A stretch of DNA of 64,000 bases from an uncultured SAR86 cluster bacterium (GTDB taxonomy: Bacteria; Pseudomonadota; Gammaproteobacteria; Magnimaribacterales; AG-339-G14). The position numbers and the translations under genes were made by a program. Positions 6,929 to 62,407 of the stretch are shown here, in pieces. Under the pieces are notes generated by a model. The model saw only the letters and a program-made list of their open reading frames with translations. It was not told the origin of the DNA and did not search any database. The first letter of the stretch is position 1; every line of letters begins with the position of its first letter. Where the stretch lies: NCBI GenBank assembly GCA_949373255.1, contig CASICS010000004.1, positions 41,625 through 105,624 on the forward strand. The letters run 5' to 3'.

Positions 6929-8188
6929 TCAAAGAATAGTTACTATTTTTTCTATAGACCTTTTAACTGAACCTTTTTTTGACGAAAGATAAGCATTCCC
7001 TTTTGCCTTTAATGTACCTAATGAGGAATTAGCCAATTGATTTTTCCAAATCAAAGAAATTTGTTTAGCTGTCTCGCCTTGTCGCAATATATCCAAATCT
7101 ATGAGCTCTTCGGCTATCTCTTTGAAATTGTATGTGCTTTTACCTGATGTTAGTGGCAATCCATACTTAACGGGTTCTAAAAAATTTTGACCGCCATGAG
7201 GAATTAATGTTCCGCCAACAAAGGCTAAATCAGCAATCGAAAAAATTGAATCTAAATGGCCTATTTGGTTTACAACAGTAATATTATTTTTTAAATCCAG
7301 AAGATTTTTATTCTCAATTTCTAAAAATGAAAAATCTAAACTTTTTTCTTTCATTATTTTCCCAACATCGCTTGCTCTATGAGGATGTCTTGGAACTAAA
7401 ATTAGGTGAAAGGAATCATCATTTAAATACTTAAAGCTTTCTAAGAGAATTTCCTCTTCAGAGGGATGCGTACTAGCACAAACAATTAATTTTTTATCGG
7501 CAAGAGCATTTTTATCAACCTTGAAAGACAGTCCTGTTAAGATTTCGTTTGCAGCATCAAATTTTAACGAAAAGTCATGAAAAGTTTTTTCTTCTTTAGC
7601 GCCCAATTTAATGAAATTATTTTTATCTTCCTGACTTTGAGAAATAATCAGGTCTATTTTAGAAAATATTTTTTTAGATAGATTAGAAATTTTCAAATAT
7701 TTTTTAGCAGAATCATTGGAGAGCCTTCCGTTCAATAGAATGGAGGGAATATTTCTCTTGGAGCACTGATCAATCATATTTGGCCAAACTTCTGTATCAA
7801 TTAGAATCATACAAATTGGATTCCAAGAATTTAAAAATTTGTGAACACTGAAAAATAAATCGAAAGGCAAGTATTGATGATTTAGAGAATTGCCATGTAT
7901 CTTTTTTAACCTTTGAGAGCCGGTCACGGTTGTTGTGGTGACCAAGATATTTTTTTTTGGGTATTTTTCTTTTAAGCCCTCTATAAGACTCAAAGAAGTA
8001 TTCACCTCTCCAACTGACACAGCATGTATCCAGATACAATTTTCTTCTGCGTTCTTTATCTTTTTTGGCAGAAAACCAAATCTTTCCTTAATTCTATGAA
8101 CCTCCTCTCTAGAAAACTCTTTTTTTGAGAAAACTTTAAATAATGCAAAAGGCAAATAAAGAAAAGTTATTAAATTATAAAAAATCAT
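6929..8188 (-). CDS. waaA: 3-deoxy-D-manno-octulosonic acid (Kdo) transferase
   Basis: It has an N-terminal membrane anchor, the WIHAVSVGE motif and a GT30 layout. It is divergent from a lipid A acyltransferase gene. Confidence 0.85.
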   Translation of the reverse strand: MIFYNLITFLYLPFALFKVFSKKEFSREEVHRIKERFGFLPKKIKNAEENCIWIHAVSVGEVNTSLSLIEGLKEKYPKKNILVTTTTVTGSQRLKKIHGNSLNHQYLPFDLFFSVHKFLNSWNPICMILIDTEVWPNMIDQCSKRNIPSILLNGRLSNDSAKKYLKISNLSKKIFSKIDLIISQSQEDKNNFIKLGAKEEKTFHDFSLKFDAANEILTGLSFKVDKNALADKKLIVCASTHPSEEEILLESFKYLNDDSFHLILVPRHPHRASDVGKIMKEKSLDFSFLEIENKNLLDLKNNITVVNQIGHLDSIFSIADLAFVGGTLIPHGGQNFLEPVKYGLPLTSGKSTYNFKEIAEELIDLDILRQGETAKQISLIWKNQLANSSLGTLKAKGNAYLSSKKGSVKRSIEKIVTIL

Positions 8189-8267
8189 TTTTTTTAGTCA
8201 GGTTTTACTAATTCTAGACTAAATGACTTGAAGTGATAAACCGTGGAGTCTACTCTAGTGGCTTAAG

Positions 8268-9164
8268 ATGAAATTTTTTGAATTTTTTATTACTGTTTTT
8301 CTCAAAATCATTAGCTTTCTTCCACAAAGAATGCAGTATTTTGTCGGTAGATCTATAGGGTCTTTACTTTATAAATTTCTAAAGCAGAGAAAAGGAATCG
8401 CCCGATGGAATTTAAAAAAATGCTTTCCAGAATTCTCTACCGAACAAATTGAAAAAATTTTAAAAAAAAATTTCAGTCGCTTAGGAGAGTCTCTCTTTGA
8501 ATTTTTAAATGCCTTTTGGGCTTCTGATAAGAAAATTAAGAAATTAATAATTAATTTTGAAGAAATCAAAGATATTGCTGATAATTTAGATTCCAAAAGA
8601 GGAAAATTAATTTTGCTACTGCATACCGTTAATGTTGATATGGCTGCTAGAGCTTCTTCTTTATTCCTGCCAGTATCAGGAATGGCAAAAGTGCAGAGCA
8701 TTAAAATACTCAATAACCTTCTTGATTCAAGCAGACAAAAATTTACTGAAAGGATTTTTAGACCCAATGAAGGGAGTGATTTTTTGTCTTTCTTGAAAGA
8801 TGGAAAGGCCAATTTGTATGCGCCAGATCAAGATTATGGCTACCAACATTCCTTGTTTATTGATTTTTTTGGCCACAAGGCTCTCACGGTCAAATTTCCC
8901 TCTATTTTAGTAGAAAGAACAAATTGTGAGGTTTTATTATTTACTCTAGATAAGAAAGGAAATTCGTATGAAGCGTCTTTAAAAAAATTAGATTTAGATG
9001 GTAAAGATATTGAAACTGACCTGAAGAAGATAAATTCTGCTGCAGAGAGCTATATTCAAAGATGCCCTGATAATTATTTGTGGATGCATAGAAGGTTTAA
9101 GAATAGGCCTGAAGGTGAAGATTCTTTTTACCCCAAAGATTTATTAAGAAATAGATCTAGTTAA
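8268..9164 (+). CDS. lpxL: lipid A biosynthesis (Kdo)2-lipid IVA late acyltransferase (LpxL/HtrB family)
   Basis: It matches the LpxL/LpxM family in length and layout and has the WMHRRFK C-terminal motif. It is adjacent and divergent to waaA. Confidence 0.7.
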   Translation: MKFFEFFITVFLKIISFLPQRMQYFVGRSIGSLLYKFLKQRKGIARWNLKKCFPEFSTEQIEKILKKNFSRLGESLFEFLNAFWASDKKIKKLIINFEEIKDIADNLDSKRGKLILLLHTVNVDMAARASSLFLPVSGMAKVQSIKILNNLLDSSRQKFTERIFRPNEGSDFLSFLKDGKANLYAPDQDYGYQHSLFIDFFGHKALTVKFPSILVERTNCEVLLFTLDKKGNSYEASLKKLDLDGKDIETDLKKINSAAESYIQRCPDNYLWMHRRFKNRPEGEDSFYPKDLLRNRSS

Positions 9165-53183: not shown

Positions 53184-53807
53184 ATGCCAACTACAAAGAA
53201 AAAAATCTTAAAAAAAGCTCCTGCTAAAAAAGTTGTAGCTAAAAAAGCTCCTGCTAAAAAAGTTGTAGCTAAAAAAGCTCCTGCTAAAAAAGTTGTAGCT
53301 AAAAAAGTTGTAGCTAAAAAAGCTCCTGCTAAAAAAGTTGTAGCTAGAAAGAGCAAATCTAAAAAGGTAATAGTAAATCCATCAGATTTTGATTCGTTTG
53401 CAAAATCATTTACTCCTTATAATTCTTCAAAAACTGAGAAGTATATGAATAAGTCTCAGAAAAAACATTTTATTGGAATCCTTAATTCTTGGAAGAATGC
53501 TTTAGAATCCGAACAAGAAAAAACAGAAAAATTAATTCAACGAGATCAAAGTAACTTTCCTGATTCATTAGATAGAGCATCGAAAGAAGAAGAATTCATG
53601 CTCGAATTAAGAAAAAGAGAAAGAGAGAGGAAATTAATTTTAAAAATCGAGTTATCACTGAAAGATATTATTGATGATTTGTATGGCTACTGCGAAACCT
53701 GCGGAGTCGATATAGGTATTAAACGCCTAGAAGCAAGGCCAACAGCAACCAAGTGCATAGACTGTAAGACAGTTGACGAAATCAAAGAAAAACAACAATT
53801 CGGTTAG
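53184..53807 (+). CDS. dksA: RNA polymerase-binding transcription factor DksA with a ~55-aa Lys/Ala/Val/Pro repeat N-terminal extension
   Basis: The C-terminal 150 aa are collinear with E. coli DksA (YMNKSQ..., coiled-coil tip DSLDRASKEEE, RERERKLI, zinc finger CETCG...CIDCK). The N-terminus is (KKAPAKKVVA)n. Confidence 0.85.
   Translation: MPTTKKKILKKAPAKKVVAKKAPAKKVVAKKAPAKKVVAKKVVAKKAPAKKVVARKSKSKKVIVNPSDFDSFAKSFTPYNSSKTEKYMNKSQKKHFIGILNSWKNALESEQEKTEKLIQRDQSNFPDSLDRASKEEEFMLELRKRERERKLILKIELSLKDIIDDLYGYCETCGVDIGIKRLEARPTATKCIDCKTVDEIKEKQQFG
53211..53345 (+). repeat. perfect 30-bp coding tandem repeat (3 full copies, one 15-bp half unit, then 1 full copy)
   Basis: The unit is AAAAAAGCTCCTGCTAAAAAAGTTGTAGCT. 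Copies are identical at the DNA level. Confidence 0.9.
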
Positions 53808-60464: not shown

Positions 60465-60908
60465 ATGACTGATGAACTGATATTAGATTCTTTGGTTGAA
60501 ACAAAAAAGTTAGGCCAAAAAATTGGCAGTCAATTATCTAAAGTAAAAAAATCTCAGGCATATATAATTTTTTTAAATGGAGACCTTGGATCGGGAAAAA
60601 CTACTTTAGTTAAAGAGATTATTTCGGCTTTAGGTGTTGAGGAATCTGTTACCAGCCCTACTTTTACAATTATTGAGCCCTACTTGTCTGAGCACCGAAA
60701 TATTTATCACATGGATCTTTATAGAATTGAAAGCGCATCTGAACTGGCTGCTATAGGTATAAACGAGTATTGCAAAGAAGAGAATTCTATAATTTTTGTA
60801 GAATGGCCCGAGAAAGCTTTTGGCTACCTCAATGATTTTGATATGAAGATATCTTTAGAGCATTTATCCGAAACGAAGAGGAAATGCAAAATTACATTAA
60901 AGACCTAG
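60465..60908 (+). CDS. tsaE: tRNA t6A37 biosynthesis ATPase TsaE
   Basis: It has the P-loop GDLGSGKTT and SPTFTI and HMDLYR motifs. yjeF-yjeE adjacency is present. Confidence 0.85.
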   Translation: MTDELILDSLVETKKLGQKIGSQLSKVKKSQAYIIFLNGDLGSGKTTLVKEIISALGVEESVTSPTFTIIEPYLSEHRNIYHMDLYRIESASELAAIGINEYCKEENSIIFVEWPEKAFGYLNDFDMKISLEHLSETKRKCKITLKT

Positions 60909-61265
60909 AGCTTTTTTAATATCTGGATGAAAATATGATTCTGGCTTCATGATTTTACCAGCTTCGTTCTTAATAGCTTTGCCATCTATGAATTTACTCA
61001 TATTGGAAGCTTTAACTTCGTTCCAAACTTTTTCAAAATCTATTCCACAACTTGAACACATTCCCATAATTACCCAAACCATATCAGCCAACCCATCTGC
61101 AACTTCAATCATATTTTGTTCTTGAAATGCCTCTAAAGTTTCTTTGTACTCTTCGGTTATTAAATTCATATATAGCTCCGGTTGAGCTCCATTTAAAGTT
61201 AAGTTTTCTTGAATTGGTTGATCGCCTGCCTTCATAAAATTTTCTACGTCTTCTTGATAAGTCAT
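60897..61265 (-). CDS. MazG-like nucleoside triphosphate pyrophosphohydrolase (small all-alpha NTP-PPase)
   Basis: The E-x2-E...E-x2-D pattern (TEEYKETLEAF ... EVADGLADM) is typical of MazG/HisE-type four-helix proteins. Confidence 0.55.
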   Translation of the reverse strand: MTYQEDVENFMKAGDQPIQENLTLNGAQPELYMNLITEEYKETLEAFQEQNMIEVADGLADMVWVIMGMCSSCGIDFEKVWNEVKASNMSKFIDGKAIKNEAGKIMKPESYFHPDIKKALGL

Positions 61266-61340
61266 GTTTCCTCTTTTTAATTGGTGATATCTAATCTATT
61301 TTAAATGACTTATGAATTTAATCAGGTAAATTAACTATAA

Positions 61341-61775
61341 ATGGAAATAATTTTAAAAGATGGTTCTTATTATGAAATTCAACAAGACGATTTGTTGTCC
61401 TGGCAAAGAACTTATACTGATTGCAATGTATTTCATGAAATAAATGCCGCAAGAGAATGGAGTGAAGCCAATCCTTCTAGGCGAAAAACAAAAAGAGGCA
61501 TTAGAAGATTTCTAAATGCATGGCTCTCTAAAGCTCATAAACTTAAAGGAAGTCCTTTTATTTATACTCAGGAAGGCAAGACAAATAAAATTGAGGAATC
61601 TATGCATGATATTTCATGGGTTGAAGAAGAAAATAGACTGGAAACCTCTAAGTGGTATATCAAAAACAAAGGTTTTTATTTTCTAGATGGCAAGAAATAC
61701 ACTTCTCCTTATGGAGTAAAAAAAGTCGTTAATCTTTCTGAAAAAATAAAAACTTTAAAAGAAAATAAGAAGTGA
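61341..61775 (+). CDS. hypothetical protein
   Basis: It is a 144-aa ORF with good coding appearance. From memory, its N-terminal W..Y....V..E....R.W...NP.RRKTKRGI..F...WL pattern resembles small prophage-encoded proteins. This is unverified. Confidence 0.5.
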   Translation: MEIILKDGSYYEIQQDDLLSWQRTYTDCNVFHEINAAREWSEANPSRRKTKRGIRRFLNAWLSKAHKLKGSPFIYTQEGKTNKIEESMHDISWVEEENRLETSKWYIKNKGFYFLDGKKYTSPYGVKKVVNLSEKIKTLKENKK

Positions 61776-61844
61776 AATTCTATTTCTTATAAAAAGTTCT
61801 TCTGGTATAGTTCGCGATCTAAATTATTGAAAGCTTAAACAAAG

Positions 61845-62186
61845 ATGAAAGAAGGAATACATCCAGATTATGCAGCATTAAAAGCAACTTGTAGTTGCGG
61901 AAATGTCATAGAAACAAGATCTACTCTCGAGGGTGATCTATCGTTAGATATATGTTCAGCATGCCATCCTTTTTATACTGGTAAACAAAAAATTGTTGAT
62001 ACTGGAGGAAGAGTTGATAGATTCAAAAAACGTTTTGCTAAAACTGCTGGTGCAGCAACGCCAACTGAAAAACAAGAAGCTCCTGCTGAGGAAGTAGTTG
62101 CTGAGGAAGTAGTTGCTGAGGAAGTAGTTGCTGAAGAAGCTCCTGCTGAGGAAGTAGTTGCTGAGGAAGTAGTGCTGAGGAAGTAG
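61845..62186 (+). CDS. rpmE: 50S ribosomal protein L31 (type A, Zn-binding) with an acidic repeat tail. As assembled, the ORF is truncated by a 1-nt deletion, and the repeat continues in the -1 frame to 62332.
   Basis: The core MKEGIHPDY...CSCG...[24 protein letters not shown] is collinear with E. coli L31 (Cys16/18/37/40). The tail is ([10 protein letters not shown])n. Confidence 0.9.
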
Positions 62187-62290
62187 TTGCTGAAGAAGCT
62201 CCTGCTGAGGAAGTAGTTGCTGAGGAAGTAGTTGCTGAAGAAGCTCCTGCTGAGGAAGTAGTTGCTGAAGAAGCTCCTGCTGAGGAAGCT
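62076..62290 (+). repeat. coding tandem repeat of two 15-bp units (GCTGAGGAAGTAGTT and GCTGAAGAAGCTCCT), about 14 units
   Basis: The repeat is read directly from the sequence. One unit at 62161-62174 lacks a T (GTAGTGCT instead of GTAGTTGCT). Confidence 0.9.
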
Positions 62291-62407
62291 TCTACTGAAG
62301 AAAATTCAGAAGATTCTCCTAAAGAAAAATAACTTACTTTTAATTATCTTTGAAATCTTACTCAGCGCAGAGATTTTATATTCTTACAACTAACCTTAAA
62401 CAAGTAA

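Follow-up and report, generated by a model that had tools for sequence, protein, structure and literature searches.

The rpmE locus and its repeat array

The window, by which we mean the whole 64,000-nucleotide stretch of DNA analysed here, belongs to a small marine gammaproteobacterium with a genome of ~1.2 Mb and 35% GC, whose assembly as examined here (G000) is 77% complete, with 26 contigs totalling 928 kb. The rpmE gene in this window encodes ribosomal protein L31 and runs into a 15-nt repeat array, in which one short unit breaks the reading frame. The features of the locus are listed below.

61845-62186, + strand: rpmE as assembled, core plus shortened acidic tail, 113 aa with a VVLRK-TAG end (from the ORF list)
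61845-62039, + strand: L31 core domain, zinc type, residues 1-65 (Pfam PF01197)
61872-61964, + strand: zinc-type-specific middle segment, unalignable with the non-zinc L31 at the same locus in same-genus relatives
62085-62278, + strand: 15-nt array of thirteen units encoding AEEVV / AEEAP (TRF score 263, 13.7 copies)
62160-62173, + strand: defective 14-nt unit and frame-break site, GCTGAGGAAGTAGT, the sixth unit, without one T
62174-62332, + strand: out-of-frame continuation of the tail, 52 codons plus TAA, intact and matching the in-frame tails of conspecific (sibling) contigs
62184-62186, + strand: premature TAG due to the frame break (from the ORF list), the frame reading VVLRK-TAG
62279-62332, + strand: non-repeat terminus AEEASTEENSEDSPKEK-TAA, common to all in-frame conspecific alleles

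The core of the rpmE product is an ordinary bL31A. The Pfam Ribosomal_L31 profile (PF01197) matches residues 1-65 with an E value of 6e-32 and 110.1 bits against a cut-off of 27, and since all profile positions (1-65/65) are covered the protein belongs to the bL31 family. Four cysteines, C16-S-C18 and C37-S-A-C40, align with those of Pseudomonas aeruginosa L31 and reproduce the CxC...CxxC zinc-ribbon pattern of type A, the residues at 16, 18, 37 and 40 marking this as a zinc-type L31. Canonical bL31A proteins (E. coli 70 aa, P. aeruginosa 71 aa) have the same core, a full-length PF01197 match and four Cys. Among PDB chains, the top hit for the core is chain 3 of 7unr from P. aeruginosa (E 4e-29, residues 1-66); PDB L31 chains align at most to residues 1-75 of the protein obtained by reading through the frame break, and no PDB chain covers its glutamate-rich repeats. 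A profile search of G000 returned rpmE as the sole L31 match.

Parsed at GCTGA, the array is built from two kinds of unit, V = GCTGAGGAAGTAGTT (AEEVV) and P = GCTGAAGAAGCTCCT (AEEAP), which follow one another in the order V V V P V [14-nt] V P V V P V P. In the defective unit GTAGT stands in place of the GTAGTT found elsewhere, a change of TT to T, and the junction reads GTAGTGCTGAGG. The repeat lies far above chance expectation and the array is present in many independent assemblies. Reading through the break yields an L31 of 162 aa that stops at the TAA at 62330-62332, its terminal tail peptide ending in ...ASTEENSEDSPKEK. The residues following the RFxKRF motif number 47 as assembled, 98 in the read-through protein and 41-81 in the siblings. 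This is not the canonical L31 architecture, taken here as an end within a few residues of RFxKRF and a total of about 65-85 aa; canonical and solved L31 proteins end about 4-16 residues past the motif, whereas here 41-98 further glutamate-rich residues follow. A promoter and terminator scan detected no terminator-like site after either the TAG at 62184 or the TAA at 62330.

These results bear out most of what an earlier note on this DNA had claimed, namely that a zinc-type L31 core precedes the repeats (Pfam residues 1-65, four Cys, array from 62085), that one short unit shifts the frame onto the TAG at 62184-62186, and that the repeat goes on in the -1 frame, which we find to start from 62174, to the TAA at 62330-62332. 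The short unit itself stands as described, although its position had been given as 62161-62174, one base off from the actual 62160-62173. A length of about 162 aa upon restoring the T is what the read-through translation gives, with the proviso that the array length may be imprecise. The truncated 113-aa product has already spread to public protein collections through automatic annotation.

The tail is read through in conspecific alleles and varies in length

Searching with the read-through protein, combined with a protein-cluster look-up, recovered 13 distinct in-frame conspecific sequences on at least 28 contigs from marine metagenomes (ENA, JGI, TARA). Alleles of 107, 117, 127, 132, 137, 141 and 147 aa share the same core and the terminus AEEASTEENSEDSPKEK, their in-frame arrays contain 2-10 units, and over 0.6-5 kb the sibling flanks match the window at 98-99% identity. 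At this locus we counted 2, 4, 6, 7, 8, 9, 10 or 13 units between flanks that are 98-99.98% identical, which is the behaviour of a coding VNTR; exact unit counts are uncertain, because short reads may collapse such arrays and long-read consensus may distort them. As in other coding VNTR-type repeats, the units are identical at the DNA level and their copy number (2-13 units) differs among co-occurring strains. Contigs with short-read-style names (NODE_, k141_, scaffold_) carry (VP)2 in six cases, (VP)3 in two and (VP)5 in one. Three ENA assemblies with 'contig_N' records of 74-131 kb have the longer and less regular arrays VVPVPVP, vPVPV[12 nt]PVP and V[12 nt][14 nt]VPVVPVP. All conspecific alleles are in frame save one, the last of these three (L116/L126, product P0132, 97 aa), which like the window is frameshifted; among the relatives, 29 of the 29 L31 genes inspected are in frame.

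Since the in-frame siblings share one terminus, this terminus is evidently translated in the population while the copy number varies between strains, and since the siblings read through to that same terminus the tail upstream of it is coding and variable in length. On this comparative sequence evidence the L31 tail is a coding feature and a trait of the lineage, with a length that is strain-variable. Changes in copy number occur by whole units and leave the frame untouched, so that strains differ in tail length. The within-population length variation proposed in the earlier note is thus borne out by the 107-147-aa conspecific alleles with their single terminus, and the outcome that it had named as a refutation, in which all orthologues stop at the equivalent point, does not apply, as read-through is seen in the siblings and in every relative from two families.

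One of the sibling contigs shows a further broken gene: on L125 (ERZ23499043 scaffold_456), a short-read scaffold, the NAD(P)HX dehydratase at 7781-8617 is split into 229 + 44 aa. In the window and the other siblings this gene is unbroken, at 278 aa.

Acidic L31 tails in related genomes

The L31 gene could be extracted from 29 of 40 relatives, 23 of them in the family of the window (f1) and six in a second family (f2). With the window included, all 30 L31 genes from f1 and f2 genomes carry tails of 29-101 aa after RFxKRF. E, A, V, P and T are abundant in these tails, which have a net charge of -2 to -23 in 28 of the 30, the remaining two (both from genus g8) being Lys/Glu-mixed with charges of +4 and -4. 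They are often built of repeats of their own, such as ETPVVEEAAA x4 in G011 and a 50-aa duplication in G028, and those of same-genus relatives end in similar ..(S/T)(P/K)KEKE motifs. No tail is present on L31 in two other families, f3 and f4 (82 and 69 aa, one genome examined from each). A background sample was provided by generic L31 proteins from 76 named bacteria of diverse phyla, obtained by a related-locus search of genome contigs. In this sample a median of 7 residues follows the motif; only four proteins reach 30 residues or above, and none of these four carries an acidic repeat tail comparable to those described here.

AlphaFold2 modelling of the 132-aa allele, using an alignment of 40 sequences, assigned residues 70-132 pLDDT values below 50 and no secondary structure, and the tail is accordingly predicted to be disordered. 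In the literature we found no paper on long acidic repeat tails of bacterial L31, and a preprint on flexible ribosomal-protein fragments makes no mention of L31.

Origin of the frame break

We consider that the missing T probably arose as an artefact of assembly or consensus building in an array of heterogeneous length, a reading based on the different lesions found in a near-identical sequence, L126, and on the indel-prone nature of the G000 assembly. Over 12.1 kb, only 2 substitutions separate L126 from the window, so that the two represent virtually the same strain; the DksA repeat array (described below) is shared, and indels are restricted to the L31 repeat. Here L126 has V[12 nt][14 nt]VPVVPVP, which is 48 nt shorter than the VVVPV[14 nt]VPVVPVP of the window, and the lesions are not the same: one V-like unit of 12 nt and one P-like unit of 14 nt that lacks a purine in L126, as against a single 14-nt V unit in the window. 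Two different frame-breaking lesions in one clone would come about much more easily through consensus building than through mutation. Reads with different copy numbers would align ambiguously, whereupon the consensus or polishing step could drop one T, and the 1-nt loss in unit 6 would then most likely be absent from the cells.

To gauge the indel content of the assembly, 366 ORFs taken from a 400-kb portion of G001, which is the closest relative, were compared with G000 by tblastn. One full-length HSP each was obtained for 319 ORFs, and 7 of about 340 G000 genes were split over 2-4 frames, corresponding to about 12 events. The frameshifts lie at the following positions.

C11:590-2050 and C3 near 12019: G000 frameshifts by tblastn against G001
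C6 near 4200, 44750, 44965, 50160, 50420, 52440 and 56150: G000 frameshifts by tblastn against G001

Many of them adjoin runs of A7-A9 or C6 and are located towards contig ends, a pattern that is the signature of residual assembly indel errors. Parts of the literature on long-read assembly (in PMC9262707, PMC8812927 and PMC12007338) describe this profile, in which indels fragment genes, fall near homopolymers and contig ends and persist in repeats; passages in PMC8812927 and PMC9262707 have indel errors in repeats outlasting polishing. G000 shows the same homopolymer- and contig-end-linked gene breaks as such residual long-read indels, although the L31 lesion is in a TT dinucleotide within a 15-nt repeat and not in a long homopolymer. 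We infer that G000 and the 'contig_N' assemblies are long-read based from the way their contigs are named, their contiguity, the presence of an internal rRNA operon and their error profile, and the 119-kb contig with its internal rRNA operon fits such an origin. Irregular units occur in three of the four long-contig assemblies (the window, L032 and L116) as against none of the nine short-read contigs (Fisher p about 0.014).

An alternative is a real and very recent 1-nt deletion in this strain, in which case the cell would make a 113-aa L31 whose 47-residue tail ends in VVLRK without the conserved terminus, and the downstream array would be a fresh non-coding remnant. Several observations speak for it. 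Both the window and L126 are at net -1, as expected if a true -1 lesion were overlaid by noise in one assembly, and in both the lesions lie directly 5′ of an identical VPVVPVP suffix. Elsewhere in the surrounding 12 kb no indel occurs, so that this is not an obviously poor stretch, and TT to T involves a homopolymer of only 2 bases. The existence of a natural 107-aa allele with a tail of about 41 residues suggests that a shortened tail would be tolerated, so that a real slip would probably be mild in effect, yet would cost the strain a terminus conserved across the genus. This conservation itself weighs against a real deletion, as does the state of the out-of-frame 159 nt, which are undecayed, being identical to L126 and differing at 2 SNP positions from L032 and L033. 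When the difference between the two lesions (a V unit without a T versus a P unit without a purine plus a 12-nt unit), the many frameshifts demonstrably held by G000 and the restriction of irregular units to long-contig assemblies are added, a real deletion appears unlikely.

A programmed -1 frameshift, transcriptional slippage or a phase-variable locus producing short and long L31 could in principle account for the preservation of the whole downstream frame, and the S16 tail of one relative, G037, likewise has a frameshift-like end, ...GSSRGSSRGSSS. The site itself reads GAA GTA GTG CTG, and neither an X XXY YYZ slippery heptamer nor a homopolymer of 7 or more is present at 62166-62176. As the relatives and nearly all siblings are plainly in frame, the position is not a conserved recoding site and does not qualify as a programmed -1 frameshift site. 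Tetra- and pentanucleotide contingency repeats switch genes on and off, in contrast to the 15-nt L31 unit, slippage of which would be frame-neutral, and the 2-10-unit alleles are all in frame, which is not how a phase-variable contingency locus behaves. With no slippery heptamer or long homopolymer, a unit divisible by 3 and two different lesions within one strain, neither programmed frameshifting nor phase variation fits; recoding or switching is largely refuted and we regard it as extremely improbable.

Of the three options that the earlier note had left side by side, a sequencing or assembly error, an inactivating slip and length variation, error is thus the best-supported cause of the 1-nt loss, given two lesions in one near-identical strain and an indel-prone assembly. 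Repeat-encoded tails in long-contig MAGs are evidently error hotspots, which is a useful caution.

Repeat extensions on S2, S16 and DksA

Comparable extensions are found on other proteins of this group. In G000, S2 (C9:104891-105856) has a Pfam S2 domain at residues 8-223 followed by an acidic A/E/P tail of about 95 aa, which reads AEAPAEEAAPEAA... and includes ..EEAPAEEAAPEAAAEAPAEE.. Acidic tails on S16 were observed in four of the five relatives checked (rpsP loci L177-L181: G027, G037, G009, G001 and G010), those with tails being G027 ((AEEAP)x8), G037, G001 and G010 (about 260 aa). The end of the G037 S16 tail resembles another frame break within an acidic array. In the 77% complete G000 assembly, rpsP and rplS were not found.

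The window also contains, at 53184-53807 on the + strand, a dksA gene whose product has the Pfam DksA_N domain and C4 zinc finger together with an N-terminal extension of about 60 aa. This extension is composed of AKKAP/AKKVV units (GCTAAAAAAGCTCCT / GCTAAAAAAGTTGTA), the charge mirror of the L31 units, and also matches the histone-H1-like HC2 profile. As with L31, copy number varies among conspecific contigs, on which DksA proteins of 120, 182 and 207 aa were called. The DksA extension is present in families f1-f3 and absent in f4, whereas the L31 tail is confined to f1 and f2; the overlap is partial and is neutral as to a functional pairing, which it neither supports nor excludes.

Placement and possible role of the tail

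In the ribosome, bL31 contributes to intersubunit bridge B1b, with its N-terminal part binding uL5 and its C-terminal part uS13 (PMC10931766), and the L31 of the window presumably shares this canonical role. The tail begins exactly where E. coli L31 ends. Because this is the uS13-contacting end of the E. coli protein, the tail would form a flexible polyanion near the 30S head and the central protuberance, and by analogy with the E. coli ribosome it is expected to be solvent-exposed as it emerges there, which makes the projecting tail suggested in the earlier note a reasonable expectation. The protein consists of a normal zinc-type bL31 core, presumed to form bridge B1b, extended by a predicted disordered polyanionic tail of AEEVV/AEEAP units, each encoded by 15 nt, and closed by a conserved short terminus. 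The presence of similar tails on S2 and S16 speaks for a general role based on charge, whether as a brush, in solubility or in the binding of cations or partners, over one specific to the bridge, and we infer that the tail acts electrostatically, as a polyanionic brush or in partner binding, and not structurally.

Flexible, solvent-exposed polyanionic C-terminal extensions are known from the P-stalk proteins of eukaryotes and archaea and from bS6 with its RimK-added oligo-glutamate. The tails of the P-stalk proteins differ in having a conserved hydrophobic factor-binding motif at the end and in lying at the GTPase centre, whereas the L31 tail is on a bridge B1b protein; the tail of bS6 consists of a few post-translationally added Glu, in contrast to a genome-encoded, repeat-built L31 tail of 40-100 aa.

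It could be argued that the whole tail is tolerated low-complexity drift without function, and that both its length and the frameshift are inconsequential. The very fast evolution of tail sequence and length, with repeats arising independently across genera, the predicted disorder and the lack of a tail in families f3 and f4 of the same order are all compatible with this. Drift does not readily explain why a tail is kept in 30 of the 30 f1/f2 genomes with L31, which are heavily streamlined (1.1-1.8 Mb), why its composition is consistently acidic with a terminal motif conserved within the genus, why the frame stays open over 30-100 codons in an AT-rich genome, or why similar tails occur on S2 and S16, and we therefore view it as improbable. 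More speculatively, the L31, S2 and S16 repeats might be an order-wide, selected polyanionic brush, with lengths that vary between co-occurring strains, that is paired with the basic DksA repeat and links the ribosome to this transcription regulator. We consider this quite doubtful; if true, it would represent an undescribed electrostatic tethering, or a condensate-like ribosome-DksA link, in streamlined marine bacteria. An abundant, genome-streamlined marine group in which L31, a bridge protein, as well as S2 and S16 keep long acidic repeat tails, predicted to be disordered, offers a natural system for asking what polyanionic extensions do on the ribosome.

A zinc-type core in a type-B gene framework

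At the rpmE locus, the L31 of every other member of the genus and family is of the non-zinc type (type B). Alignment at the DNA level of the window (61780-61964) with G001 (L005) showed that the rpmE leader and the first ~26 nt of the gene (the first nine codons) match closely, with nearly every column conserved, that the middle, about 93 nt in the window versus about 135 nt in G001, is unalignable, and that close alignment picks up again at CATCCTTTTTATAC and continues through the 3′ half. Since an unalignable middle lies between matching flanks, rpmE is a mosaic or an in-place replacement that has retained the tail; judged from this alignment, the rpmE of the window species is a zinc-ribbon middle set into the local type-B framework. 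Family f2 also has both types, each single-copy and with a tail. An acidic tail of the same sort is present on the bL31B proteins (YkgM/YtiA type) encoded at the rpmE locus of same-genus and same-family relatives. E. coli has bL31B as an additional copy under Zur repression (PMC10931766), whereas in the group of the window type B is the only copy. Lateral transfer of L31 has long been noted, as part of PMC1175822 records. The in-place change of the L31 core from one type to the other, one dependent on zinc and the other not, is also relevant to zinc economy in the ocean.

The genus of the window and genus g2 share the gene order tsaE-mazG-orf144-rpmE-typA, and typA is located 3′ of rpmE in most other family members. 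Between tsaE and rpmE (window 60897-61775) are a MazG-like gene and an orphan of 144 aa, both conserved at 66-87% aa identity in these two genera; the orphan has no Pfam match. As their order is conserved in both genera, they are an old part of the locus and not a recent insert. The conserved rpmE leader may be a counterpart of the gammaproteobacterial rpmE autoregulatory operator (PMC10931766).
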